Below, piece after piece: positions 9,001-47,582 of a DNA stretch of 64,000 bases. Under the pieces are notes generated by a model that saw nothing but the letters and a program-made list of their open reading frames with translations, was not told where the DNA came from and made no database searches. Position numbers and translations under genes: made by a program. This DNA is from Yuukianura sp. NJ FZ-2021 (Eukaryota), in NCBI GenBank assembly GCA_046563655.1, contig CM102288.1, positions 4,464,001 to 4,528,000 on the forward strand, read 5' to 3'. Position 1 is the first letter of the stretch. Each line of letters begins with the position of its first letter.

Positions 9001-9571
9001 ATTTTATCCTGAAGTGAACATTAGACAGTTTGTCACTTTCTTCTTTATTATATTCTGACCTTAACTTTCACCATGGTCATTCACTTTAGCCTTGCGAGGT
9101 CACTGACCTTTGACTTTCCAAAATTCCATTTAAGAGAACCTTTGCAATTTTTTGGCAGTTCCACTAATGATTTCTCTGTTTTTGGATTTGTTACTCAATT
9201 TTGGCTGTGGTTTAGGTTCCTGTAAAGCTCCTTTCTCTTACATTTTCAGGATGTTTCCATCGTAAATCAAAATGTAGAAAACACTCAAATTCATCTTCAT
9301 CCTCCAAATTCCTGCTTTGGAACAGAGGAATGACTGAGATTTCTCGTTTTGTGGCACAAGCACAACCGCATTTCCTCCTTTTCTTCTGCGAGTTCCATTG
9401 GAACCCGGGGAAAAGCCGGATTCCATTTGTCGGTTTTTCGGATTTTTTCTTCCGTATTCCTGCTAAAAGTTGATTGAGATTGGATGTTTCGGAAGAAGAG
9501 CAATTCCGGAAATGTCTCTGCACAGTTGGAATTAATTCGTCTCCTTCTTTTGTTTGTATTTTTCATTTCAG

Positions 9572-12500
9572 CGGATCTCCAGACATCATCGACTTATCAG
9601 TGATCAACTCCAGACCGACGACCAAACTGCCAGAACACAGCATTCCACTGATGGTAACCTGAAAATCACAAAGTTAAACAGAAAATTCACAATTCTTTTT
9701 TTAGCAGGTCAAAGGTCAAAAGTGTGCGAGGGTTGGTGGTGTGGCCACGGGAAGGAGTGTCAGCTAGGAAGTAATGGCTTACCAGAATGTGTTTGCAAGG
9801 ACCACTGTCCGGAAACTGACGATGATCGGCGACTGTGTGGTTCCGACGGTCACTTCTACTCCAGTTCATGTGAACTTCATCGAAAAGCGTGTTTGACCAA
9901 TCAGGTCATTACAATTGACACACTTGGTTTCGCATGTCGTCATACCGAAACACAGTCAACACCGAAACCGAAAGATCCGGATCCGCCGTCACCTCACTTT
10001 TACGCCACCTATGAAAAGGAGCTGATTCTCGATAATCACGGTAAGGCAAAACTCCATAGGTCTGGTTGGCAATTTCATGTGATTGAGAACGTTTCGTCAA
10101 CCATTGACATGACATTAGAGAAATTTTGAAATTTATGAGCCAATCATATTCCCTCCCTTTAACGAACCGAATCGCACACCAATTGCATTCTTTTGTCGAA
10201 CCATGGATTGACGATTCCGGTTTTCATCAGGAATTTTCGTTTTCTTCGTTCGTTCTTTGTTTTTTTTTGTCTTGTGACACATAGGAAATCCTTCCAGAAT
10301 GTTGCTGTGAAACTTGTGACGAGCGACATTTTGGAAAGCTAGCTTTCCCCAGAAGACGCAGGACTTTTTTTGAAATTTTATTTTATTTTTTATAAAGTTC
10401 CAAAACACGAAGGTTGACTTTTGTATTTGAAAATATTGGAGAGGCTGTCCATGTTCCTCGTCGTCGCTTTTCTCGTCTCCTGTCTCACAACTTCCAGTAC
10501 TTTTGGATCCATCTCACACTTTCACTCCAGAGCTCAATCCTTTGAGTCCCGAGAAAGTTTGTACCTCAGGAAGCAATAGAGGAAGTGAACCCAGTTAAAA
10601 ATCGAATCTCCCCAATAATTCAACTTCCACTTTCCAACTTTCCATCAAATGTCACTTTCCATCACAATTCACTCAAAAGTCAACCAAACTCAAAGGATCA
10701 CACGTCAAAGTTCTATTATACCTTGGAAATCCAATTCACAAGGACTACACACTTTACAGCGTCTCATAAAAAACTTATTTTTCGGTTTTTGTTTTCAGTT
10801 GGTTCGAATTTTTCAAGTTTTGTTTCTATTTTGACGTTTTCGCAACGTGTGACAATTTTTATTTGTTGCGGCTCAAGCTGCTCGAGGAGTTCGAGAGTTC
10901 TTCCAATCTTAACAAAATTCTTTCGATTTTAAAAATCATTTTCGAACTAAAACAAGATTTCAGAGGGTTTCGGCTTATTTCTAAAAATATGTATATGAAT
11001 GGAAAAAAAATGTACATAATGTTATGTATTATGCTTATTTTTGACGTCTGTTCTAGGGCAGTGGAAAGAATCGTATCTATTCCCATTCGAAACATTTTTG
11101 GTGTTTGATCCGCATAGAATTTTCGATTGGCGTAGAAATTCTTTATAATTTTTCCTTTCTTTTTGCTTTTTTCCTCTGTTTGAATTTATTTTGATGCTAA
11201 AAGTTTGAAAATTAAAAAAGGTACGTTTGTTGCTCAGTGTTTGATAAAAAGTTGTATTTGAGAAGTGAAAGTAGAAAGGAAGTGGAGTTTTTGTCTACTT
11301 TATTATTCATAGGAGCCTATTTTTTATATTTCCAAGTACTAGAACGAATCTTACGTGTTTTTGGAAGGGCTTAGCATTCCTTGAAGCCATTTCCGCTGTC
11401 GACACGACCCTCTGAAGCTCTTAACTTATTTTTCATCTTCTAAAAAAGTAGTGAAAAGTGGAATTGTTGGAAGGAGGACCAAGGCACACCATTTCCCCAT
11501 CAGATAATTCATAAAGAAAAGGATTTCACACATGAGAGAAAGCATAAAGTTAACTAAACCTCTTCGTCATATTTGTTCAAAGGAGAAAGTACGGAGGGAA
11601 AGGAGAATAAAATTACAAACAATCATAAATTCATAACACAAAAAAGTAATGGAACAGACGAGACAAGAAAATGGGACAAAAGAAATTCTGAGAAAGAATT
11701 CAAAATGGAAAGCCTTTTTAATAGTTTTTTGAAACATTAAAAACTAGAAAGAAGAAAGACGAGAATCCTAATTAATCAAATTCACTTTCTCTTTCTGACT
11801 TTTCTGAGTTTTAGTCAGCTACTAGTTTAGTAGTTATTCTGTTGGCATTAGCTCAGCTCATAAACCATCCGTCCAAATAAAACTTTTAGTCAAACTTTCT
11901 TATTTCTTTAGTCTTATAGTCCTTTATGATAGACTTTCTCCATGGTATTTTTTCTCTAATGGTAGCCTTATTTCTTGCTGTTCATAATGTTTTCTTGGAA
12001 TCTGTTCAAATGTTGAGGACTTGCCGAAGAAGGTCACCAACTTTACTAAAAAGACTAAAGTTTTGACGTTAGAAATTCCAAAAACGTTTTCTCTCCAAAC
12101 CGTGTCTATTTCGCAAAGTAAAAAGTAGGCGATGCAGCCGTTAGCAATTTTTATGCCTTTTTCTTTTGCTTTTTTGGAACAACTATCCGCACTATGCCTC
12201 TCACTTCTTTTTCTTCGCCAAGAGTTTGTTTTTGCAAAAAAACGAAAAGAAGCCCTTCGTGAGTCGAATATCGAACAAATAGAAACTTTTTTTTTAGCGA
12301 AAGAGGAAATAAAGCTCAATTCCAAATTTATTTTCTTTTTGTCGATTCCTTTCACTTCAATTTTTACTACCTTTCTCTTCCCCTCTTAACTTTAAATGTA
12401 CTAAAATGTGTTGTTTTTCCGTTCGGTTTTTTGAAACTGTAAGTTGTTTTTGCAATTTAACATAAAAAATTGGAAATATAAAGTAATTCTAGAGGGAAAG

Positions 12501-15500: not shown

Positions 15501-18500
15501 TTCAGCTTCTGCATGCCGGAAATTACAGTTGTCAAGCTCAGAGAAATGACAAAGTCGTTCAAACCCACATTCTCACTGTGCAAAGTAAGGAAATACAATA
15601 GATTTGCTTCAAGTTACAATGGGGTCAAGAGGTCAGTGACCTCTAATCTGATTTCCGTAATGAACTGTCATAGCCCTTCCGGATGTCAAAGTCACGCCGC
15701 ATATTGTCTGGGAAAAACCGGGAGAGCAAGTGACCATGGAGTGTCGTGTCATGGGCGAACCGTTTCCAAGTGTCCGGTGAGCTTGAGCAGCACAATTCAT
15801 CTAAAATAAAGTAAAATAATTAATTAACTTAATTAATCAATTGATTTATGTTATTTAGGTGGTTGAAAAATGACGATCCCTTACCTCTAGTCGAACTTGG
15901 TGAGAAATATGTCGTAACTGGCGACGGAATTCGACTTCGCCTCAACGACATTTACTTTTCGGATACCGGAGCGTACATGTGCATGGCTGAGAATTCAGCT
16001 GGGAAGAGACTGGATATCTCCAGCCTCGTGGTCATCGACGACACTACACCTACAGGTAAGGTCAGAGGGGGGTCAAGGGGTCATCTTTTTCAAAAATCTT
16101 ACAACCTAACCCCTGTGCTACCATAACTCATCGTCTGAGGCTTAAATTGTCCAATTGGACCTCCAGGAGGGATCAAGGGCTTTTGAGTGCTCTTGTTCCG
16201 TTGGAAGAGGGATTGGGCTGGAGCTGGAAGTCTCTTGGGAAATGTTCATGGAACTGGAAATCAAGTGTATTACGGCCTCCACGTCTCTTTTCCTCTTTCC
16301 TAATAATTCTGGAATCTAGACACAAGAGTCTCGCAGGAAAAAGATTAATTTCACATTTAATTTCTAAAGACACACGACTACTTAATATAATAGAACGAGA
16401 TTTAGGCAAGATGCTGGCAGAATGCTGGAATTATTTTAAGAGTAATAAGTGCATTGGTGCTGAACAAGTTGAGCGACTAAAACATAGTCAAACTGGAAGT
16501 TTCTCTGGGTTTTTCGAAATTTGGAAAGCCTAACTACTAATTACTAAGTAGTTTGGCTCGTGTCTTCTTGGTTCTAAAAATTACGGAGATTTTCAAATGG
16601 GAGCTTACGAGAGAAGTCGGTTGGTCCAGGCTTCCCAACCTCTCGTGCGATACTCTTCTGCTGCAACAATTTGATCTTCTTTGCATTTCCCAAGTATTCC
16701 ACGTCCAACAATTATGACATCTCCGTGTCTTTCTCCAACAGCATCTTCGACTGTAACGTATTGCTGGCCAAGTGAGTCCGGAACAGGGTCCAGAGACACT
16801 CCAGGAATGAACTGGAGATACCGCCCTTTCGATTTGTTCAAAAGGTCAGAGGTCACGTCCGTTTGAGCAACAAATCCAGTAGTGACTGATCGGAATCCGT
16901 CTTGTGTCACCATGTCAGTAACTTCTTTGGCGTAACTAGGAATTTTAGAAGCCAAATTCTCTTCTGAACTCATCTGAGTGATGAAAATGGCTGACAAGGC
17001 TGGGAACCGGGCGAAGCAAGATAAGAGTCCAGTTCCTGGCAGGCCATGAGCTGTGACCATATGAACCCATTCGGAGATTTCATAAGGTTTGCTCTTGAGC
17101 TGCTTCTCGACGGTATGCCCAATGTCTCCAAACTTCCGGTCTTCTAGGATGAGGAATGACTCTTGTTCGCTAAGTTTTGTCAGCCGACGTCGGAATTCGA
17201 GAACTTGATCACGACTTTCAAAGTTGTAGGTGTCCAAATGCTAGAAAAAAACAAAACAGATCAGAATTTGAGAACAAAACTTAAGTAAATGGAACTCCGA
17301 AGAATCTGTTTACCGTTTTGACAAGGCAAATGTAAGGAGCCAATCTCTCAATTCCGTCCAAAACTTCCCACCAATTGTCTAAATCGAAGGAAATGCAGAG
17401 ATTTGATTTTTTCTTGAGCATGATTTGGAGCAATGTTCGGCCGTTGGGAGTAGGAACGTGAGGTATGAGTGACTCTATTTTTTGTTCAACGTCCAAGTCA
17501 CGTTGTGTTAAATTTTGATTGAGGAAGGCAGAGATTTGAGAGATTTGAGCTGCACTGATGATGTCCTCACGAGAAAGAACAGACAGCAATAATGGCACTG
17601 TCAAGAGCGAGTGAAGCGTGATCCCATGGTAAGCCAGATTCTCAGCAGCCCCTTGTCCCCTGTCAAGAATTGTGATGACATCGGTCACAACTAGTTCATG
17701 GGCCCGTAGGACGTTGGCAGTGTCAATGACACTGGACCCAGTTGATACGACATCTTCGATGAGGAGACAAGTATTTCCGATATCATACACTCCTTCGACT
17801 AATTGCTTCGTTCCGTAGGATTTGGCCTCTTTTCTGTAATAAAAATTACCCTAAGTTAACAAATTGACTGACATTACGACTAAAAGTTACCTTTTGAGAA
17901 TCATGGGTACCGAAGACAGAGAAGACACAACAGTTGCGATGGGAAGAGCTGTATAGGGAATACCGCAGATCAAATCATAGGGCAGTTCCAAGTCTTGTGC
18001 CTTTTGCCATATCATGGAAGATATCGTCTTCTACAATTTCAAAACAAAAGAATATGAACTGTTAATTACTTAATCAAGGATTTGTTTAACTTTACCAGTA
18101 GTTGAGGATAAGAAATGACAACTCTCATATCAAAGTAGATGGGACTGATGAACCCAGACTTGAGTTTAAACTCTCCGAACTTGATGGTTCCAATTTCATA
18201 GAGTTTCATGATGAGTGACTCCAGTTGACCTTTCGACCCTCCATCATCCCCCTCCCCCAGCATCTCAGAACTCATCTGTCCAAAATCCAAACCGTACTAC
18301 CTACGAAACGAAAAAAAACACAGTTATCAGACACCGTAGTATCCACTTTGTATGACTCACTCAAACTCATGTTATCGATTATCGATTTAGCTTCGCTTCC
18401 ATTCGAGTCCTACCGTACTACGTACTCCTGCAGGACATAACACCCTAAAGGTCAAATGTCAAAGGTCAAATATTCCTGGCCTTACCTCCCAACTTCCAGA

Positions 18501-26428: not shown

Positions 26429-29400
26429 ATGTTTAGATCGTCAGGAGAAGCAAACTTTGACAAATTATTAGGTAAGCTGAAATGTGCCATAATGGTTTAC
26501 TAAGACATAAAAGAGGAAGTAACGAATATGTAAATATGGATTTCGTATTTGAATGTATGAATTTGCAGACCGAGCGACTAGCCACCTTCTGCTCGAAGTT
26601 GATTTAGGAGCTGTTCTTGGGATAACTGACCTAATACGGCAAAAGGACTGCACGTAAGAGTATTCTAACAATGCTAGTTGCAAGTAACAGCCAAAACAGT
26701 AGTAACATATTTATGTTTGTTTCCAAAGGCCTAAGTATGCTGTTTCTGCAATTAAGAAGAAGCTTACGACTCCAAATCCGCATGTCGCTTTCTACTCTTT
26801 GCAGGTAATGTCGTCGTCGTGTTGGTCTAACTTTCGTTCGGTACAAAATTACTGGAACCCGGATTCAGAATAATTTATAATGCATTGCAGGTATTGGAAG
26901 CGGTTGTGAAAAACTGCGGAAGTCCATCCCATGAAGAAGTTGCTACAAAGGAGTTTATGGAGTTCCTACGAGATCTGGCAAAAACTACGAATCACGATAA
27001 TGTGCGGGACAAAATACTGGAATTGATTCAAACCTGGGCTCACGCCTTTCGCAAACTGTCGTCTTACCGGGCTGTGCAAGACTGCGTCGTAAGTTTTTAT
27101 CAAATTCAAAACCGATGGAATTGGACTTTATGTAGTAAATTTGAACTAAAGCTAAAATTCAATTTCAGAACATCATGAAAGCTGAAGGATGCAAGTTTCC
27201 TCCACTTGTTGAAGCGGACGCAATGTTTATGGCATCCACTGCTCCTGAATGGCAGGAAGGGGAATGTTGCAATCGTTGTCGTGTTCAATTTGGATTGCTC
27301 AACAGAAAGGTTACAAGAACACTACAACTATATTTCACAGTTACATAGCTCAATTTTACGTAAATTCCTAATTTTTCATTTTTTTTTTGTTGGTTTCAGC
27401 ATCACTGTCGTGCGGTAAGTTCTTACTTGATAACCTCGAAGTCGACGAAGGAAAGAAATACTTTTGAATTTAACTTTTGAGTCTAACTAGGTCACTTCTT
27501 TCTATCACTCCGTTCAGAATTGACAAGCCACTAAAAATTCTGTTTGTATTTCAGTGTGGCCAAATTTTTTGTGCAAAATGCTCCTCAAAAGTTTCAGCCG
27601 TACCGAAATTCGGAATTGAAAAGGAAGTTCGAGTCTGCGACTCTTGTTTTGAAAAATATGGAAAGTAAGTTCATTTTTTAAAGTAATTATTATTTACCAA
27701 TTTGCCTTCAAAGCACCTTGCGAAGAGTCAAGAATTGTCGTTGACCTTTGACCCTCCAAGGCGTAACATGTTTGCGAAGGTGATAAGGTGGACCATGAAT
27801 AATTCTGTTTACTTTTCACTGGTGGCTGAAACTGATAACGAATTATTTCATACTTCTCAATTGAGTTTCCAAAATTAACTGACGAGGTTAAAGTTTAGAC
27901 TTCGTGATTCGCACTTTCACATCTTTGATTTTTAAAAGTTTTCTTTTCAAAACAAGTCAAAATCTCCCATTTTTAGTTTCTTTTTCTGGAATCGGACGAG
28001 TTGGTTGGTACCCAATCCATAGTTAAAATATGAGTTGCTGGAGTTCATAATTCCGAATTGATTTGAAATTTTGAAAAAGTGATTTTAAGAATTTTAACTG
28101 GAAATAGCTCTTCTGGAGACTCGTTCCCTAGGGATAATGACTCAATTGATGACCCAATGGACATGCTATTGAGAGGTGGACGACCAACGTCTTCCAGTCA
28201 GCCACCATCCCACAGTGTCAATAGTAAATCGTCACCGGTACAAACTATATTTCATTTGCAAAACATTTTAGTACTCAAGTCATTCAACTTTCAAGTTGCT
28301 GAATCATGCATTTAACACTTGAAGTTAATGACTTGGTCACTTTTGCACTATAATTGTGCGTTGTGCCTCGAGCTTAAAGCATTTTGACTCCCAAACCCGT
28401 TATACCAAACCTCTTCGCTGCCTCTTGTACTCTTGGTTGTTGTGAATTTGTTTAACTTTGGAACAAGGGACATTCAATTACTAAAAATTTAGCTAAAAAT
28501 TAATTTGTTGTTACTTTGTTCCTAAAATTGCTTCATTTTTTCCTGTTTTTGTGTTTTCTCTTTTCTTGATTAATTCTGTAGGCATAAGTCGTCAAAGGCT
28601 GACAAGGTAAAAGTTGCTACAACTAATATTTCTTCTTCGGGATCGGATGAGGCTCTGCAACACGCAATTGAAGCCTCACTGGCAGAATTTAATTCAAAAA
28701 AAGTATGTCAAGTATGGAGCATATCCGATCCTTCATTAATCGATTAATCCAGTCACAAACTTAACTAATCTCGATTAACGTAAACTTAGGAAACGTAACT
28801 TGTCTAACCCAATACCTTTGTCGTCTTTTCATTTTGCTTCCTTTGCATATCTTTTGTCTGCTTTCCTAACCCTAGCACACTGCTGCATGCTTGTTTCTTG
28901 TGTTGTGCAAATGCAGTATTTTGTTTTAAAAATTTTGGATTTTGAAACTAAACGTTTTTGTATCAATTGAAGGTTCAACATTCCCAGGCACAGCAGCCAC
29001 GCGGGAAAACTGAAGCTGAATTGAAAGAAGAGGAAGACTTGGCTTTGGCACTTGCAATTTCCCAGTCTGAGGCTGAAGAAAAAGAGCGTGAAAAACAACG
29101 CAAAAGTACTGGCGGAAGTGCTAGCGCTGCAACTTCAGCGCCAACTGCTGACAGAGATTTTGAGAAGTCTGAGAAAGATAGAAGCTCTTCGACACCCAAG
29201 AAATCGGCTATGGCAAAGTCAACATTTGAACAAGAGGATCCAGAACTTGCGAGATACTTGGACAGAAACTACTGGGAACAACGTCATGGACAGACAAAGG
29301 AAGAGGTTTCGAGAGAAGAGACTGGAAGTAGTTTGCATAACAAGAGTCCTTCACCATTCCAGCCCTCGGCTCCAGTAAAAGAGAATAAGAACAAGGTGGA

Positions 29401-31028
29401 ACAAGTAGAAGAAATGGACGGATTCATGGAATCGCTGCGAGCGTCAATTGAGATGTTCGTGAATCGGATGCGGTCAAATTCCAATAGAGGACGACATGTT
29501 TCCAATGATTCTACGGGTGAGTTTTCACTAAAAGTTGAAGAAAACAGGAGTTTTGGCAAAATTTTTTTGGATTTTTGAAATTATGATTGTCTTTTATTCC
29601 AGTGCAATCGCTGTTTCTGAATATCACGTCTCTACATTCCCAACTGTTGAACTATATCAAGGCTCAGGATGACTGGCGAGGTGAGTGAAAATTTTGAATT
29701 TCAAAAACAAAATTGAATTTTTGGAGTTTTTGGACGCCTTATTTTGATTTTTAGCACATTACGAAAGTCTACAAGAGAAGTTGATGCAGGTTCATGATGC
29801 GAGGGATGCTTTGGACGATTTACGGAAAGACTACGGGGAGAAGCAACGTCGAATTGCTGAGGAAATTGAGCGTCAGCGGCAAATTCAGCGTCAAATCAAA
29901 CTCCAGGACATGCGACAACAGAAGCATCAGTATCTTCAGCAACAGCGAGATTTGGCACTGCGTCGGATCCAAGAAGAGGAGCGTCAGATGCAACTGAGAA
30001 TGGAACAGCAACGTCTTGGAACTTTCGGAGGCTATTCGATGCGTGGACAAGGTACTGCTTCTGAAACATGTTCAACGATTTTGTTTTAACTATTTAGTTT
30101 AACGAGATACTGTTTTATGGCAGGGTACGCTGGGCCGCCTTCGGGTCAAATTCCTCCGGGAATGATGATGGGGCCAGGTCAAGGTCAAGATCCACAACAC
30201 ATGTATCAGTACATGCCACAGGCGCATTACATGGACGGACAGCAGCATCCTAACGCAATGTTGCCGCCACAGCATCATATTCCACAAGGACAAGGACCAC
30301 AACAACATATTCCAGCAGGCCAAGGCTATCCCCAACACATGGCCCAGGGCCAAGGGTATCAGCAGCAGCATATTCCTCCGGGTCAGGGATATCCGCAGCA
30401 TATTCCACCAGCACAAGGACAACAGCAGCATATTCCACCAGGTCAAGGACAACAACAGCATATTCCACAGAGTCAAGGACAACAACAGCAAATTCCTCCA
30501 GGTCAAGGACAACAACAATATATTCCACCGGGTCAAGGACAACAACAACAACAACAACATATTCCACCAGGTCAAGGGCAACAACAACATATTCCACCAG
30601 GTCAAGGATACCCTCAGCATATGCCTCCGGGTCAAGGATATCAGCAGCATCCGTATACTGGACCTGATGCTGCCTCCATGCCAAGTGGGCCACCACAAAT
30701 GATGCCTCAGATGGCACAAGGACCTCCGCAAGTTGAAGCCCCACCTCAGGTTAATGTGCCACCACAACCCCAGGTTAATGCTCCGCCGGCCCAGGTGAAT
30801 GCTGCACCATCCCAGGCTAATGCACCACCACAAGCCCAGGTTACTTCTTCACAACCCCAGGTTAATGCTCCGCCACCCCAAATTGATGCACCACCACAAG
30901 TGAATGCACCACCTACTCCAGTTGGATCCAATCAAGACGTAGCAACTGCTGCTGCTGTCACTGCTCCCGCTCCAGCTCCTCCTGTTAAAGCGGAACCAGA
31001 TATCGCTGAACTGATCAGCTTCGACTAA
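26429..31028 (+). CDS. HGS: Hepatocyte growth factor-regulated tyrosine kinase substrate (Hrs/Vps27, ESCRT-0)
   Basis: Exons 26429-26471, 26569-26653, 26729-26804, 26891-27088, 27169-27309, 27400-27414, 27555-27664, [28108-28237 or 28582-28702], 28973-29516, 29603-29680, 29755-30051, 30124-31028. VHS (VLEAVVKNCG, ILELIQTWAHAF), FYVE (APEW..RKHHCRACGQIFC..VRVCDSC), UIM (EEEDLALALAISQSE), PELARYL, PSAP, coiled coil, P/Q-rich tail, terminal clathrin box LISFD. Confidence 0.97.
30274..30650 (+). repeat. Coding minisatellite of about 30 nt units encoding HIPPGQG(Q/Y)(Q/P)Q repeats in the Hrs P/Q-rich region
   Basis: About 12 imperfect copies of catattccaccaggtcaaggacaacaacag. Confidence 0.9.
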
Positions 31029-31268: not shown

Positions 31269-33391
31269 TTAGAAACTACGATGATATGAGATGATAAAAT
31301 TTCGACTCTTGTTAACCAGCTTCACTGAGCCTGCTTTTGACCTCCGATCAACCAAGTTGTCCACGAGTCCCCAAGGCTGTAAAGTAATTAACAAAGTAAT
31401 CTAATTAATCAGTTTAGTTAAAGTTAAGTAACTTCGTAGTTTAATTACTGACCTCATTTTGATGATCTTCCCAACTCTCCAACTTTAGGGAAATACCGTG
31501 TGACGAAACCGAATTCTTTTGGAGTGTTACTTGGTATCCGCTGGACATAAAGTCCGCAAGGATGTACAGCTTGGACACATCGACTGTAGTGGACGTTTCA
31601 GCCGCCTGCGTCATGAACTTCCGGATTCGCTTGTCCTCATCTACTGACTTCACCACAGGTTCAATGTCAAGTTGTTTTAGATTCCAATTGTAGATAGTAT
31701 CGGTGTAGACGTAGCAACACTGTACTATCGTTTTAGTCTCAGTCACGACCTTGGACAGTTTCCGACTTGTTTCACACAGATCATCAATGGTTATCCAGAA
31801 CTTTTGAGTTGTTTCAAGAAGTCGAGCGATTTCGGGTTTTTCAAACTTCAGTTTTCGGAATCTCGTGGATCCAGTGAACTTGAGAAGGCCGCAGGTAAGT
31901 TCAAGAATTGACGAAGGTCGTTCTGAACCTGGTTGTTCAAGAACATCAGTCGGAGTAATCGATTTCTTGAAAGTTTTGAGACACGAAGACAGTAATCGGA
32001 GAGCTTCTTGGATAAACATGGCAATCAGTTCCACTTTTTCTGGAATTTCTAGAACACTGAATACTTCCCAGTTGCTTTCCGGTGTTGCTTGGACTAAGAT
32101 GACAACAGGCGATCGGCTGAGATCAGCATGCTGATCGGCAGTAATCGAGTGAGTTCGGCTTCTTCTTGGTGACATTGACCTTGACCTTGCAGTGGCTCTT
32201 TTTAGGATTGACTTGGGCTGAGGAGCTGTTGCCGGTGGTTTGCTTAACTTTAGTTCTGTAGTTGTCTTCTTAGCATCAATTGTCTTGGGCTTGACTTCCG
32301 GTGGACGTACTTTCGGTACCAACAAAAACGGATTCTGCTTGAATTGGAAACGACCTTGCAGGACAGTGACGAGCTGAGATCCATTTTGACGTAAATCGTC
32401 AACTCGACGTAAAAATTCAGACGATTCCAGAGCAAACTCTTGCGTCAACTCTCCAATTTCTTCGTAAGCTGCATGAGTTTCCATTAGACGTGTGTTGAGA
32501 CGGGGATTTGGATGTAGAATTTGATCTTCCTCGGAGAGTGTTGTGGGTGACATTGGGATATGATTCATTCCGTAGGTGAGTAGCCACAAGTATGCTCCGA
32601 CGATACTTTCCTTCTGGGGTACAGGAGTGTCAGCATCCTGGAATGACAGTTTGGACATGAGGGGACGAAGGCCTTCAAGTGTCTCTTCGGCATTCTTCGT
32701 TACGGTGGACAGCAAATTTAGAAACCCGGCGACATTTTTGCAGTGTTTCGTGTTCCAAATTCTACAAAAAACAATCAGAATCTCAAACAAATTCTTACCA
32801 AATGATAATTTTCAAAAACATAAAGTTACCGAATAGCTTCGATTGCAGATTCGGTTCTAGAAGGAAGCAAATTTTTGGGACCACAGCACCAACCGCAGCA
32901 AATCCTCCGTCTGCTCATAAAAAAACGTTTCATTTACGATTACAAGTTAAAATTTAAACGAAACTAAATGTAAACTGTTTGTCACCAACCTACCAACAAG
33001 ATCAAAGTCGGTTTTCACTGCTACGAGCTTCGGGCGGTGGCTTTCAGTGCGTGCCACGTTAGGCTGTGAAGGTGGCTTAGCGACATCCTCGGCTACTCCC
33101 GACACGTCACCTTGTTGCTGTGTTTGCTCCTTACTGTTACTCTCAACAGCAACATTGTCAACCAACGTCGAAATACGTTTGAGCGACGTATTCCCCGGTG
33201 CTAGTTGATCAGATGGTCTGGACGTGTCGCCCATGTCCTAAAAAGCTTAATTACTCCGCCCAATCAATTATCAATTGAACAAAATCTTCAATAAGTAAGG
33301 TCAACTGAACATCATCAGTGACTTCAGTCAGTAGTGCGCTGAGGTCAATTGATGTTTCACAAGTTCCCCTTACGTTGTGTTGCCACGACAT
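31269..33391 (-). CDS. Uncharacterised protein of about 600 aa; no family recognised
   Basis: Predicted exons 33391-33374, 33237-32990, 32910-32830, 32761-31453, 31376-31269 splice in frame with GT-AG boundaries. One exon is a 1.3 kb open frame. Contains RRRICCGWCCGP and an RS-rich stretch (ARSRSMSPRRSR). The first exon is uncertain. Confidence 0.7.
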
Positions 33392-33930: not shown

Positions 33931-35176
33931 TTAGTTGGACAGAGCATCCTTGAGAGCCATCACATACTGAAAGGAAGAGTCAACAATTAGAATATTAATT
34001 AAACCCAAAGTAATTAAGTAAACTCAGAAGAAAATATTGAAATCGCATACTTGAGCAGGAAACCAGTAGATAAAGACTCGACTGGCTTCTGTAGGGCCAA
34101 GTTGAATAGCGACGATATGATAATGCTCATATCCAGTGATCGGTTGACTCACGACGTTTCGGATGGTTCCAATTGCTACTTTCTCAGTCCTCTCCTTTGT
34201 TCCGATCCAAAGCTATAAAAAGTATAAAGAATAACTAACCAAGTTGTTTTCATTAGATTTTCATTGGTTTTTTAGTTGACCAACCTCGTCAGCTTCAAGT
34301 TTGATGGTTAGACGAAGTTTTGAACCTTTGGCATTGACCATTCCAGAAATCGGTAAATCAGGAAGCGGATCGTTACAACCGAGAATCCCTGGCATGACAT
34401 CCTCTGGAATTCCCTTCTCAATGATCTTCTGATGACGAGGGACTGAGCACCAATTTCCAGATGAAGAACTTTCGTTGACTGTGTCATCGCCTTTCAGTTC
34501 AGCTGCTGTGGGTGTTTTGTTAACGGCCAACACATCGTCTAGCTTGGTTCCAATTACCATCACTTTGGAACCTGCTGCCAATCCAAGCGATTCTAGCACC
34601 ACATCGTCTTTGGGTATCCCCTTGACCAGAACTTTTTGTAATTCGGGAGCAATTTTGGTAAAAGTTTCAATCATTCGTTTCAAATCACCTGAAACGAAAA
34701 ATGAAACGTTTAGAACTGAAAAACTACATTGATCTGAACGACTTACCGACAGTCTTTTTTAGAGAAATTTTGATTGGGATCGGTTGTTTGTTGTAAGTGA
34801 CTCTGAGCTCTACTTCGACTTCCGGTTCTGGCTCAGGGTCGGCGATGGAAGAAGAACTGGCGATTGGTTCGTCCAGAACCGACGAGGACTCAGGTTCTCT
34901 TTTGCTTTCTTCCACTTCCATAGCACTTGTCACCGAGGTGGCCGACGTTGTGGTAATGGCTGGAGCAGGAGATACCGCCATACATTCGTCCTTCCCTTCC
35001 TCCTCGTCCTGACTCATACTCTTCCGTTTTCTTCCACTCCCATTCTGGGTTTGCTGCTCCTCGTTGTCACCGATCATAGGGGTTGAAGTGTCGACAACAG
35101 AGGTGCTGCCACTTCCAACAGTGTCACCAACGCCTTCATCCTTCGTCGTAGAACTGACTTCATCCACATCCTCCAT
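33931..35176 (-). CDS. UBFD1: Ubiquitin domain-containing protein UBFD1
   Basis: Exons 35176-34747, 34688-34285, 34212-34051, 33966-33931. Acidic N-terminus, UBL (LRVTYNK..TVGDLK..LQKVLVKG..KVMVIGT), HQKIIEKGIPEDVMPG, LRLTIKLE..LWIGTKERTEK, QLGPTEASRVFIYWFPAQYV. Confidence 0.92.
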
Positions 35177-36499: not shown

Positions 36500-37567
36500 T
36501 TAACTAATTTGCACTTGGTAAACGCTGAAGCGATGGTTAATATTAGGCAAACAATGGAGCTTAGTAAGGGACACAAGGGCTCCTGACTTTTGACACTGCG
36601 CAAAGAACACTCGATTGGTCCTAGCATGTAGAAGTGTCATGGCGCACATGAGACAAGGTTCATGGCTCAAGTACACATCCAGTCCAGTACACAAGTAATC
36701 CCCGACACTCGATCGTTGTCGAATCGATTTAGCTTCCTCTCCAGGTACTTCTGGTATCCTGTACTTGTGTACTTGAGTCAAAGTTAACGCCGTACCACCC
36801 TGAAGTACTGCCACAGCATCCACTGCAACATTTACAGCATGTCGCAGTGGAAGTACTCCGGATGATCCAGTCGTACATATCAGTGTATCTGGACAGCCTT
36901 CAGTAGGGTCATGCACTAAGCAGACAGGGACTCCACCTGATTCGTTACTTTTAGCTACAACGGACTCCATATTTGTCTGAATACTTCTCAACTCCTGCGC
37001 AGTAAATCCACAGTCTTCGGCTAACAACTTGTCAAGATTCTTATCCGGTTTGAAGTTCAATGGCCACAGGGACTTTACAGCTTCAAACTGCCTACTTGAC
37101 AGTGGACACCTACCGGCAACTTCCACGATTTTGATCGATTCCTCACTTAAATCAAGTCCAGCATAATAGTCACTCAATTGTACACTCTGGTTATCATCAC
37201 TAGACACTCCAGTAACTGGAATGCATGATTTCAACAAGTCAAGTAGACTTGCGATACTTGACGTCTCTTCGACTGCTGTCAAAGCAATGGTCATCTCACC
37301 ATTCTTTGAGCAAATTCTTCTAAGATGAATCAAGGACTTCGGAAGTGGCGGAAGTCTGATCAGTAGATTGCTCGATTGACGTCGATCTGTAATCTTGGCC
37401 ACAAAGATCTTGATTAGCGGTATCTCTTGTGTTTTGTCATCAGACAAAACAGCTGATATTTTCATTGACATTTTCCGTTTCTTAGTTTCCGGTTCATCGT
37501 GACTTGGAGGGGGAAGGGAGGGGACAGTAGCAGCAGTGATTAAATGTTGATGACAGTTGATATCCAT
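36500..37567 (-). CDS. ADAT3: tRNA-specific adenosine deaminase subunit 3 (Tad3, catalytically inactive subunit), intronless
   Basis: Single open frame with first ATG at 37567 (the ORF-track start at 37630 is GTG). Motifs: HLRRI, P.S.RQFE...WPLNF, pseudo-active site RHAV (V replacing the catalytic E), [32 protein letters not shown]....NHRFSVY. Confidence 0.95.
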
Positions 37568-37599
37568 GTTCCGAACTCTCGTTAATTTATTGTTTGTTG

Positions 37600-40500
37600 T
37601 TACTTTTGTGTATGGATTCGTAGCAGGCACACTCCATTATGGAGTGTTCGTGAATATTTGGTTGGTTTTGGAGAATTCGGAACGGATTGGTCGACACTGT
37701 CGCCAGTATCACCAGCAGCATTGGAGGAGCCACTAGCTGTAACTGGCTCTGCTTCAGTCGTCGTCGTACGGTCGTCGTCACTGCTACTATCACTGCTGCT
37801 TGGGCGTTTGGGGGGAGTGTTTGGGCCAGTAAAGAGAGTCACAAAGAGTCCATTTTTTGAAACGTGGTTGAAGACACTCTGGCACATGTCGTCAACCTTC
37901 TGCATCACGTCTTCCATTTTCTTACTTTCCACTTTTGAGGTCAAGTCCAAGTGGGCCAAGCTCATGTTGTGGTTCACGGTGGCCGCTTGAAGGTGTTTAA
38001 TAGCTTGCTTTGATTTTTTAACTGAGACCTTCAATTACAATTTGAAAGACAAGACGAATTAGTTTTTGATTTAAAAAATGTCTTTCAAAAATTGAAAATG
38101 CTGTGAAAATCAGAATTGGTAAGGTGGTCATCCATGGGATTCCTCAGTACTCTGGCCAAAATTTCATCACTGACTTTATCAAATTAATTAATTCCATACA
38201 AAACTCACCGGAACAAAAGATTCAGGAGACGATCCAAGCGAAAAGTTTTTGTATTTCTCCAGGATTGAGTCCGGGGCAATCACAGTTACTAAAACAAAAC
38301 AAAAACTTAAAGTGAATTGAAGTTAAAGTAATTGAGTGAAAATTAAAGTAAAGTAAGGCGTGTGTGACTGTGTGTGCGCGTTTACCACTTTTGCTAGCCT
38401 TGGCTGTTTGATTGAAAATCGATGATGAGAGTTGACATTCTTTCAAACCAATTCCAGCTTCATCTGCTATCAGTGCATCACCAAATCGAAATCCTACTCA
38501 CCACATTATATGATTGTAATGTCTGTTTATAATAAATTACTGACAGAAGTTTAATCGATTACTCACCTCGTGCTAACTTGAGTTGAACCATTTTCATTGT
38601 GGCAATGGCATCTTCAACTGGACAGTGTCCACCCTCACTGGCCTGAATCTCCTCTCCCAAGAAACTTTCCACAAGCATTGCCAGTTTCGGTTTCTTATTT
38701 CTCTGTCCACTGACATTGAAAATGACGCTCGTGTCAATCACATATGGATGAATCATCTAAACACAAAAAAAAATGCAGTAAATCATTCGACAAGAAAAAA
38801 AAACGAAAAAATTGCACTCAATATCAAATGCGTGATACACTATGTCTCTACCTTCATAGCATGTAAATCACAATTGAGGGAATGGCCAACAAGAATTGCG
38901 TCTCGAGGTAATCTTGTTTCCAAAGCTTTCTGGACGTCTTCCAACGTTGTAGTGACATCTTTCAAACTTTTCTTGGTTATTCCAGAATACTCCGTCAAGT
39001 AGTTGGTAATTCTGTTCTTTGGTTTTACAAAAGACTCGTAGACGACCTACAAACATCAACCAACAATCAATACAAAATGTTGAAAACATGCGATGCATAT
39101 TTTGTACTTTTTAATTTTCAAAAAAATCAACATTTTTGAAAAATCGTCCCATTTACCTCATGATTTTCATTTACGACGGCGATTCTTGTCAGTTCTGAGG
39201 TGGTTCCGGTCGTAATGCACATTTCACAATCGATAGCAAAGATAGGTGAACTGTTTGAAACCTCCTTGTACTTTCGTTTGCTCATCTTGTAATCAGAGTA
39301 CTTGTGCTCCATTTCAAAATCAAATGGAAGTGGATAATTCTCCATAACCATTTGTTGGAGGCTGAGTAGAAGGTACGTCCGAGGAAACATGTCTGTCAGA
39401 GGAAGGTCAAGGACAGGAGCAGCGCAACCCAGAATATTCATGTCATCTTCCTCTTCTGCTTCTGTATGAGCAAAATTAATTGGAAACAGAGCTCGAAACA
39501 CTTTGAAAACTTCTTTGGAATGGAGTGCTGCCTCTATTGTGCCGTACTCTAAAAATAGAAACCAAAATCTTACTCAAATTCCGAAATCCGAATGAACAGT
39601 TCATGAAAAATGGTGAACAATCTTACTTTTCAGAATATTTTGTTTCTGAACTTGAGTTAGAGCAACACATGCCATTTCCTGGGCGAAGTCTGTGCCATAT
39701 TGGAAAGGTGACATGACCTCAACTCGGTCTTGAAAAATGGACGTTACTTTTGGCAGGAAATGCTCGTAGGTAAAGAAGTCGTGACAAGACAAGCCTTCCA
39801 GTACGAGCACAACGATTTGGGTCAAATTTGTATACTTTTGTAAGTAGCACCACCTAGTTTAAAAATTATACAATGAATTTACAAGAAACAGAACGAGTAA
39901 CAGCCGACGCGTCGTCATATGTCAACTGACCTTTCAGGAGGATATGAAAGTGTGTTTCCGCCCAAGGCGTAGAGAAGAAGTTGCTGGACATCCGAGACCA
40001 TAATGGGAATTCTGTTTTCCTGAGCCATGGACAATGATGCGTTCAGTCCTACACCTTGAAGAGTCAACTTTGGAATTTCCTAAAATATAAAAAGCTAATC
40101 ATAACACCAATTCCGTATTGGTTTGTAACTCAACTACTAAATTATTTAATTAACTCACTGTTAAGATCTTTTTGCGTGCTCGCAATCGAGCCTTTAGGTC
40201 TTTAAATTCTTCTGGACTAAGTTGCTTCCGACCACCATTAGTAGCTTTCGATGCGGCTGTTTCAGCTTTGGCAAGTTCTCGGACCCTCTTCAGTTCAGGC
40301 GGAAAGTCTAATACCTCGCCAGGCTAAGAAGCAAATAAGACAAACAAAACATTACCATTTCTGAAAACGAAAAACGTAGAAACCTCCACTTACCCGTTTA
40401 ATTGCATCGTTCGACTTGGCCAGTTCGAACTCCGTGATCAATTTCTTGGCCTTCTTCTCCATCCGCTTCAGCTTCTTACTCTTGGCCAATGGAACGGTGG

Positions 40501-45971: not shown

Positions 45972-47582
45972 ATGGCAATGGGACCAATCCGACGTGTCTA
46001 TGGAGTAGAACAGAACAATGACTGTGACGTAGCATTCTACGCAGACAAATGGCGTCTGCCGGCACATTCCGACGTTATCAAAACCGCAAACGTCGTGTTT
46101 CGCGCAATGCTGTCATCTGATTTTACGTATCCCACTGAAGAGGGAACTGGATTGACGCGTGTTGACGTTGAAGATGTTGACGGCAGAGCGTTAGACAATC
46201 TCCTAAGGTCAGATTTTCAAAAACTGACAAAAATTTCAAAATTTTGAAAATGTCGTAAAGTTTTCCTGAAATTTTAGGTGTCTATATGGATATCCAGTAC
46301 CGGTTCAGTCAATTGAAACTGCACTTCTAACGTTGTATGCAGCGCACAAGTACCAGTGTCCAGAGCTCGTGAATCTTTGTGTTTCGTATTTAACGTTTCA
46401 TCTCAAAGAAACCAACGTCCTAACGGTTCTCAAATTTGCTAAAGTGCTGGCCGTCGATTACCAACCGCCTGCGGTAAACATTTTTCAAAAATTTCGATAC
46501 AAGTTTTCAAAATTTCAAAACAATGTCCACATCCAAACTTTTCTTTGGTAGAAATGTTCCGCTGAGGTAAAAATTGAAAAACCTAAACGACGCGGAAGAG
46601 GTAGAAAACATGTTCCGTCGCCCGTTCCGGAGCGAAGACGCAGACGCCGTCCGTTTGACCGAAGAGAGCCACCATCCGTGGTGGGGCAGGACGAACCCAC
46701 TGCTGCCAGTGCTCCACTGATGACCTCTGACCTTGACACTATCGAAGCAGCCTGTTCTGATCTCCTACGCCTCTGTCTCGGGGTCATTGATACTCATGCA
46801 AATCAAATTCTGGAGGCAGATGAACTAGAGGACCTTGATCTTGACACTTTAACGTTGATTCTATCCCGTGACACTCTTAATGTCAAAGATGAGGTCAAAG
46901 TTTTTGAAGCCTTAGACAGGTTAAACTTACATCTTTGGAAAAGTGAAGTGCTAAGGGCCAGTTTGACACAATTTTTGACACTTTTAGGTGGGCGGGGCAA
47001 CAGTGTAAGCAGCAACAGCTTCCATTGACCGTGACGAGCAAGCGCCAAGTCCTGAAAGACTCCATTTTTCTTCCACGATATTTGACCATGACCCTTAAGG
47101 CCTGGGAAAATGGACCCCTTCGCTCTGGAATCTTCGCCCCTGAAGAAGTGGCTATCATTCAAGGCCTTCTTAGTGGGAAGGTCAATCCAGGTCAAGTGAC
47201 TTCCTCTGAAGCACCGCTCTTCGCCTCATGCAGCCACCCACGCCGTCCTGTTCCACCAGCCAATCAACAAACGAATTCGGCCAAACGAGGAGCACTCGGC
47301 CGGACTCGGTCGGATCGTCGTCGTCCACTGCTTGGTTTCTGTCGGTTTTTTCAATTTCAGCATGGAAAGTGTTGTAAGAAAGGAGGGTCTCAAGACTCGA
47401 GTCCGTTTTCTAGTGCGCCTACGTCTCCAGCACACCAAGGTCAAATCCAAGGTCAAAGGTCAACTTCTCCCCCTCCGCATCTCCAACCCCCAAATATCGG
47501 CGGACCAAGGCGTGAATCTCAAACGGCCCGAATCAACTTTTTGGAACAAATTGTCGTCTGTTTTGCTTGCCTTTTTGACTAA
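45972..47582 (+). CDS. BTB/POZ-BACK domain protein (BTBD2/3/6-related, no PHR domain visible)
   Basis: Exons 45972-46207, 46278-46473, 46552-46919, 46988-47582. CDVAFY..WRLPAH..VFRAML..VEDVDGRALDNLLRCLY..LYAAHKYQCPEL...C (BTB); ILSRDTLNVKDEVKVFEALDRWA..C..PRYLTM (BACK); ends with CFACLFD. Confidence 0.85.

Follow-up and report, generated by a model that had tools for sequence, protein, structure and literature searches.

Fungi have two ubiquitin-interacting motifs (UIMs) in Vps27, and animals have one double-sided UIM in Hrs together with a conserved box that is unexplained. The locus analysed here, part of a 64,000-nt stretch of DNA (the window), raises the question of whether a single animal gene makes both designs, by choosing between two exons, A and B, the second of which would supply a further UIM. 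Such a switch could alter the grip of Hrs, an endosomal sorting protein, on tagged cargo.

The Hrs gene and its two candidate exons

Positions 26429-31028 of the + strand hold an Hrs/HGS gene with 12 exons per isoform. Pfam finds VHS, UIM and Hrs_helical domains in that order on its exons (VHS E 1e-16 on exon 4; UIM 14.2 bits and Hrs_helical E 9e-8 on the common exon 28973-29516), while the FYVE 3′ exon has no Pfam match by itself and aligns with FYVE-bearing homologs; together, these comparisons give the VHS, FYVE, UIM and Hrs helical order of an Hrs protein. The gene is single-copy, with one match across the genome (98.7 Mb, 22 contigs). The closest homolog of its UIM exon is from Folsomia candida (46% identity). 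In a tree of 29 rows, it falls within a 10-row clade (support 100/99) that also contains Folsomia, Orchesella, Allacma, protein P0002 and five metagenome contigs, one of which, L004, is its nearest row (81% identical). Because it groups with Folsomia, Orchesella and Allacma, the gene is, according to this tree, a springtail-clade gene. Its parts are as follows.

26429-26471, 26569-26653, 26729-26804 and 26891-27088, + strand: exons 1-4, with the start codon and the VHS domain (splice sites, open frame)
27169-27309, 27400-27414 and 27555-27664, + strand: exons 5-7, the FYVE finger, aligned with the FYVE end of L004; last donor in phase 2
28108-28237, + strand: exon A (130 nt), phase 2 to 0, with a weak purine-rich acceptor; a linker
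28582-28702, + strand: exon B (121 nt), phase 2 to 0, with a pyrimidine-rich acceptor; a Lys-rich start, then the UIM-type motif
28643-28687, + strand: UIM-type motif in exon B (SDEALQHAIEASLAE); Pfam UIM 14.1 bits, UIM_2 15.6 bits
28973-29516, + strand: common exon with the canonical Hrs UIM (about 29027-29074) and the start of the Hrs helical domain (Pfam)
29603-29680, 29755-30051 and 30124-31028, + strand: final three exons, with the helical domain, a Gln/Pro-rich tail and the stop (Pfam, open frame)

Two features of this gene lie outside the A/B interval. The 15-nt microexon at 27400-27414 encodes part of the FYVE HHC motif, and L004 has the same microexon. In the last exon (30124-31028), Gln/His/Pro/Gly repeats follow one another in an extended, near-tandem array; further, the protein exceeds its springtail homologs in length by 110-140 aa.

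An earlier note on this DNA had proposed A and B as mutually exclusive exons between the FYVE and UIM exons, and its coordinates, phases and splice dinucleotides all hold: the FYVE donor at 27664 reads AA/GTAAGT in phase 2, and the UIM exon begins at 28973 in phase 0. With either exon the frame stays open to the stop at 31026-31028, yielding proteins of 873 aa (A) or 870 aa (B). The same note's two forbidden products behave as it had claimed, as joining A to B creates a stop after one codon and omitting both shifts the frame, with a stop after 17 codons; the first stops (codon 267 with both exons, codon 239 with neither) are each far upstream of later junctions. Boundaries and frames alone are weak evidence, not beyond chance, because the 1.3-kb interval between the FYVE and UIM exons contains 32 open AG..GT candidates running from phase 2 to 0, located in 6 open-frame regions. 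A and B stand out among these candidates because they are conserved.

Exon A had been described as a Ser/Pro linker. It is a linker, but not a featureless one, as it contains a conserved D-P-x-[DE]-hydrophobic core (DDPMDMLLRGG at 28148-28180). Two further splice sites were considered and set aside. Exon A has an extra in-frame acceptor at 28090, whose use is possible, but L004 agrees with the acceptor at 28108. The internal donor of exon B that had been placed at about 28607 does exist, as a GT after 28606, but L004, L013 and L003 offer no equivalent, and it was rejected as a conserved third option.

Conservation and probable exclusive use of the pair

A pattern search for the canonical UIM returned 16 metagenome loci, five of them in the springtail clade, and four of these five cover the FYVE-UIM interval. 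Three of the four (L004, L013 and L003) have an A-type exon followed by a B-type exon, both running from phase 2 to 0, and the fourth, L014, has B only, flanked by introns of 91 and 83 nt. In the tree, each of the two main branches of the springtail clade contains the pair. In all four loci with the pair, including the window, each exon singly keeps the frame while both or neither break it, with a stop within 1-5 codons when A is joined to B and within 17-32 codons when both are skipped. Across aligned bases, the window and L004 are 0.78 identical in A (0.88 in its core) and 0.58 in B (0.73 in the UIM core), compared to 0.42-0.50 in the three introns; differences at codon positions 1, 2 and 3 number 7, 6 and 16 in A and 12, 7 and 17 in B, and are thus mostly at third positions. 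Overall, the comparison with related species that the earlier note had suggested finds both A and B conserved across the springtail clade.

Annotated proteins divide in the same way. Folsomia candida RefSeq isoform X1 is the B form and X2 is the A form, with the swap at the same joint, and both RefSeq members of the Folsomia cluster contain one exon each (one A only, the other B only); RefSeq isoform models rest on RNA-seq. The A form is also found as Allacma CAG7726980.1, Orchesella CAL8124153.1 and P0002. Among the other 11 of the 16 metagenome loci, several of which do not cover the interval and only one of which (L010) was in the tree, there is no A-like or extra UIM-like motif, and an origin of the pair before the springtails was rejected on this basis.

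If only one of the exons were used in the window species, the other would be a relic. The absence of a pyrimidine tract from the acceptor of exon A would fit this explanation, as would L014, which indicates that a lineage can carry B alone; however, A and B have kept their frame, their boundaries and third-position-biased change with respect to L004 while the introns diverged, making a relic highly improbable. A and B are, judging by their conservation and frames, very likely a real, conserved and most likely exclusive exon pair.

In L014, the B-type exon (L014:3183-3297, - strand) leaves no room for an A exon and would therefore be part of a constitutive two-UIM form; L014 branches first in the springtail Hrs clade, with weak support.

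Several sequence elements surround exon B.

28247-28265, + strand: inverted-repeat arm whose partner at 28901-28919 would loop out B (-16.4 kcal/mol, z -2.8; window only)
28764-28769, + strand: ACTAAT element downstream of B, aligned with L004, which we take to be a candidate branch point or STAR-family site
28884-28889, + strand: TGCATG element in the B-to-UIM intron, a candidate RBFOX site

The intron between A and B varies greatly in length, with 344 nt in the window, 216 nt in L004, 52 nt in L013 and 31 nt in L003; the nine constitutive introns of the window gene are 72-140 nt long. In C. elegans, introns under about 40 nt are not excisable and are held to block double inclusion, according to the available text of PMC4165533. 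Steric exclusion of this type is ruled out in the window and L004, because their A-B introns are long, and there either frameshift with decay or regulation would have to enforce exclusivity. Frameshift and decay of the double and null products would be the general means, and an A-B intron that is too short (31 or 52 nt) may assist in some lineages.

Competing RNA structure was rejected as a conserved mechanism: the pairing found in the window is absent from L004 and L013, where tests of the arm beside A's donor gave z scores of +0.4 and +1.0, respectively. A distant branch point beside A's donor was likewise rejected, as the AG-free zones upstream of B extend 87 and 76 nt in the 344- and 216-nt introns, short of that donor. 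The (T)GCATG element follows B in the window, L004 and L013, occurs twice upstream of A in L003, and is absent from L014; its significance as UGCAUG is taken from PMC4165533. The pattern was noticed post hoc, and the chance of finding GCATG is 0.13-0.21 per intron, so RBFOX control through these elements is only a lead. The choice between A and B might, more tentatively than the preceding steps, be tissue-regulated through them.

The claim that exactly one exon must be used may be too strict. In all four loci with the pair, the whole of A joined to B breaks the frame, as does skipping both, but in two GenBank models, OXA56337.1 of Folsomia and CAG7726981.1 of Allacma, a 5′ portion of A is spliced in frame to B, at matching places. 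If A had two donors, the gene would make three products (A only, B only and 5′ A plus B). In line with this, a phase-2 GT occurs at a comparable position in exon A of the window, after 28188, although its context (AC/GTCTTC) is poor and neither L004 nor L013 has an equivalent; each A exon holds 1-3 phase-2 GTs, none of them near the donor consensus. Gene-prediction software can fuse exclusive exons by way of cryptic sites, and the RefSeq members of the Folsomia cluster show only the two single-exon forms. On balance, a third, joined product is rather unlikely, and single use of A or B is the preferred reading in what follows.

The UIM-type motif of exon B and its possible relation to Box1

The UIM consensus, as given in an excerpt of PMC8273247, is Ac-Ac-Ac-x-hydrophobic-x-x-Ala-hydrophobic-x-x-Ser-x-x-Ac, with 8 defined positions. 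Exon B of the window satisfies seven of them, including two of the three leading acidic residues, and its earlier description as a good UIM consensus is justified. Across seven B copies, the Ser is invariant (7/7) and the core residue is Ala in three and Val in four; the full L-x-x-A-I-x-x-S core occurs in the B exons of the window, L004 and L003.

The Pfam UIM profile (PF02809), named earlier as a check on B, gives it nearly the same score as the canonical UIM of the same gene (14.1 versus 14.2 bits), but both are below the gathering cut-off of 21. The B exons of L004 (16.0 bits) and L003 (13.8 bits) also fall short of it, while those of L013 and L014 (2 of the 5 genomic B exons) have no match, nor has B within proteins P0001, P0122 and P0235; all four A exons are without a match. 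The gathering score does not discriminate here, because single canonical Hrs UIMs miss the cut-off as well (14.2, 13.0 and 15.5 bits). A profile built from 54 distinct non-springtail Hrs UIMs matches all seven B peptides (shuffle p 0.001-0.027) and none of six A peptides, a set from which Allacma A was left out. Further, hhalign aligns B with the canonical UIM at E 0.0006, and a B profile compared with the PDB has the tandem UIM region of USP25 as the top of 9 matches (E 0.003) and ZFAND2B as the fourth, with designed helical proteins and a potassium-uptake protein also among the nine.

Structure prediction for B with ubiquitin, using a ubiquitin identical to that of the host genome (L025), yielded a score of 0.36, compared to 0.01 for the best of three controls, with contacts agreeing to at least 89% and a partner pLDDT of at least 58. 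In a benchmark that contained no peptides, 51 of 78 solved microbial pairs reached the mark for such scores, as did 2 of 108 mismatched ones, and the corresponding counts for eukaryotes were 39 of 65 and 2 of 126; scores of 0.60 or less comprised just 5 of the 78 solved pairs, yet all 4 passing mismatches. The prediction lends weak support to binding, and its score may stem from likeness to solved UIM-ubiquitin complexes. Compared with the pattern of a double-sided UIM, the motif of exon B would be single-sided. Overall, exon B probably binds ubiquitin.

The position of A and B in the protein is that of another conserved element. According to PMC2796970, animal Hrs contains a conserved Box1, aligned there with the first UIM of Vps27, for which no function has been described. 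On our own reading, the [LIV]-P-x-[ED]-Y motif corresponds to this Box1. It is found in 201 of 224 parsed Hrs linkers (from 234 proteins) and in 7 of the 11 metagenome loci outside the springtail clade, and in none of the six parsed springtail-clade Hrs proteins. The motif is also absent, with no replacement UIM, from spider and mite Hrs and two look-alikes (P0033, P0081, P0083, P0105, P0109, P0137, P0165 and P0220).

On the Box1 profile, the best-scoring register is the same for all seven B peptides (p<0.05 in 3/7), and hhalign aligns B with Box1 at E 0.002 and a probability of 13%. For A, the corresponding alignment is marginal (E 0.086), with 1/6 at p<0.05 on the Box1 profile. Between A and B, hhalign aligns one column, using an A block that excluded L003's A, which is without the DP core; A and B were therefore rejected as recognisable tandem duplicates, their similarity being undetectable. 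Because of the one-register alignment with the Box1 motif, it is plausible that B descended from a Box1 exon. One duplication could possibly have given rise to both A and B, and, given the similarity at E 0.0006, B could also be a copy of the canonical UIM segment.

The same alignments admit an explanation in which A and B are true alternatives and B, a Box1 descendant that keeps Box1's partner, does not serve chiefly to bind ubiquitin; its resemblance to a UIM would then be incidental to common descent. The single register, the loss of Box1 from springtail proteins and the Val-type B copies, which are without the core Ala, would all agree with it. However, B fits the UIM profile better than the Box1 profile (7/7 versus 3/7), its hhalign similarity to the UIM is the stronger, and three B exons carry the full UIM core. 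The Val-type copies also have a precedent: UIM2 of USP25 has Val in place of Ala (PMC8273247, as excerpted), yet still contributes to chain binding (PMC5361193, in its available part). This explanation is accordingly judged improbable, and a UIM-type function of B remains the preferred one.

A bolder account, which we regard as speculative and doubtful, is that springtails turned a decayed first UIM (Box1) back into a ubiquitin-binding helix under tissue-specific exclusive splicing, the Val-type copies representing an intermediate stage. The sequence intermediates among springtail B exons would link Box1 to the lost UIM.

Proposed role and comparison with known systems

The explanation we favour, and consider likely from the comparisons above, is an old and conserved springtail pair of alternative exons that are used singly, with B adding a UIM-type helix. 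With exon A, Hrs would have one UIM; with exon B, it would gain a helix 38 residues upstream of the canonical UIM, as in fungal Vps27. Cargo capture by ESCRT-0 relies on several weak contacts with ubiquitin, and UIM number could therefore plausibly set how efficiently cargo is sorted. By binding ubiquitin weakly, B may raise the avidity of ESCRT-0 for multiply ubiquitylated cargo; avidity is favoured over chain-type selection because the linker between the UIMs is long.

Vps27, which has an additional UIM (PMC2796970, available text), shares the VHS-FYVE-UIM-UIM order, and its UIM cores are similarly spaced (42 aa in Paraglomus Vps27 P0443 versus 38 aa in the springtail B isoform). In Vps27, both UIMs are in one listed protein, whereas the first springtail UIM is optional, encoded by an alternative exon, and located in an animal Hrs. 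Animal Hrs/HGS has the same domains and the canonical double-sided UIM, and A and B sit at its Box1 position; the difference is that Box1 is missing from the springtail proteins examined, with A and B in its place. Splicing also changes UIM number in ataxin-3, where an isoform gains a third UIM (PMC8273247, as excerpted), but ataxin-3 is a deubiquitinase with alternative C-termini, in contrast to an internal exclusive pair in a sorting receptor. The non-homologous, mutually exclusive exons 5B/5A of egl-15 and 9/10 of let-2 in C. elegans, the latter an example of short intervening introns (both from PMC4165533, in the text available), resemble the Hrs pair in that either exon keeps the frame, the intervening intron is short in some species and UGCAUG is nearby; they belong to other genes, and the intervening intron of springtail Hrs varies among species, from 31 nt up to 344 nt.

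The earlier statement that metazoan Hrs has one UIM has another annotated exception. In a regex survey, a single UIM was counted in 82 of the 87 representatives parsed from 150 listed, and in 254 of 257 parsed other proteins (307 listed), though the survey is insensitive and missed B in P0001 and P0122. Its second-UIM matches in P0036 and P0091 were discarded, as they lie downstream in the helical region; the real second UIMs that it detected are in Allacma, one fungal Vps27 and the bed bug Cimex lectularius. The RefSeq isoforms of Cimex Hrs, which are predicted models, have two UIMs (X1, X2), one (X3, X4, X5) or none (X6) (P0447-P0451 and P0309; XP_014242578.1 and kin). Unlike the springtails, Cimex keeps Box1, and its extra UIM, duplicated in tandem from the canonical segment, is included independently, not exclusively; going by these models, Cimex arrived at a similar UIM switch by a path of its own. 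If springtails did revive Box1, hexapods would have evolved switchable ESCRT-0 valency at least twice, counting the independent case of the bed bug, and the springtail pair would be a natural series for studying the function of Box1 and why animals gave up the two-UIM design of Vps27.

Among the literature listings, the beginnings of abstracts and the available text of the cited papers, no description was found of the A/B pair or its UIM. The component parts are of known kinds, and their combination in animal ESCRT-0 seems to be undescribed, although RefSeq already lists both Folsomia isoforms. One animal gene making both designs, in the laboratory species Folsomia candida, would permit their direct comparison.

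Other open frames in the window were also compared with Pfam, and 6 of 21 have a match. The neighbours identified, at 16605-17850 (-), 34261-34758 (-), 36500-37636 (-), 9536-10129 (+) and 46552-47028 (+), are, in that order, UMP synthase-like (OMP decarboxylase, phosphoribosyltransferase), UBFD1-like, a cytidine deaminase-like frame, a Kazal domain and a BACK domain. A 456-codon open frame at 31441-32811 (-), whose end is some 400 bases away from the stop codon of Hrs, has no Pfam match at E 0.001. Elsewhere in the genome, a polyubiquitin gene (L021, G000:C4:13368688-13371867) has an intron at the same place in every ubiquitin repeat, and a second such array is located on C1.
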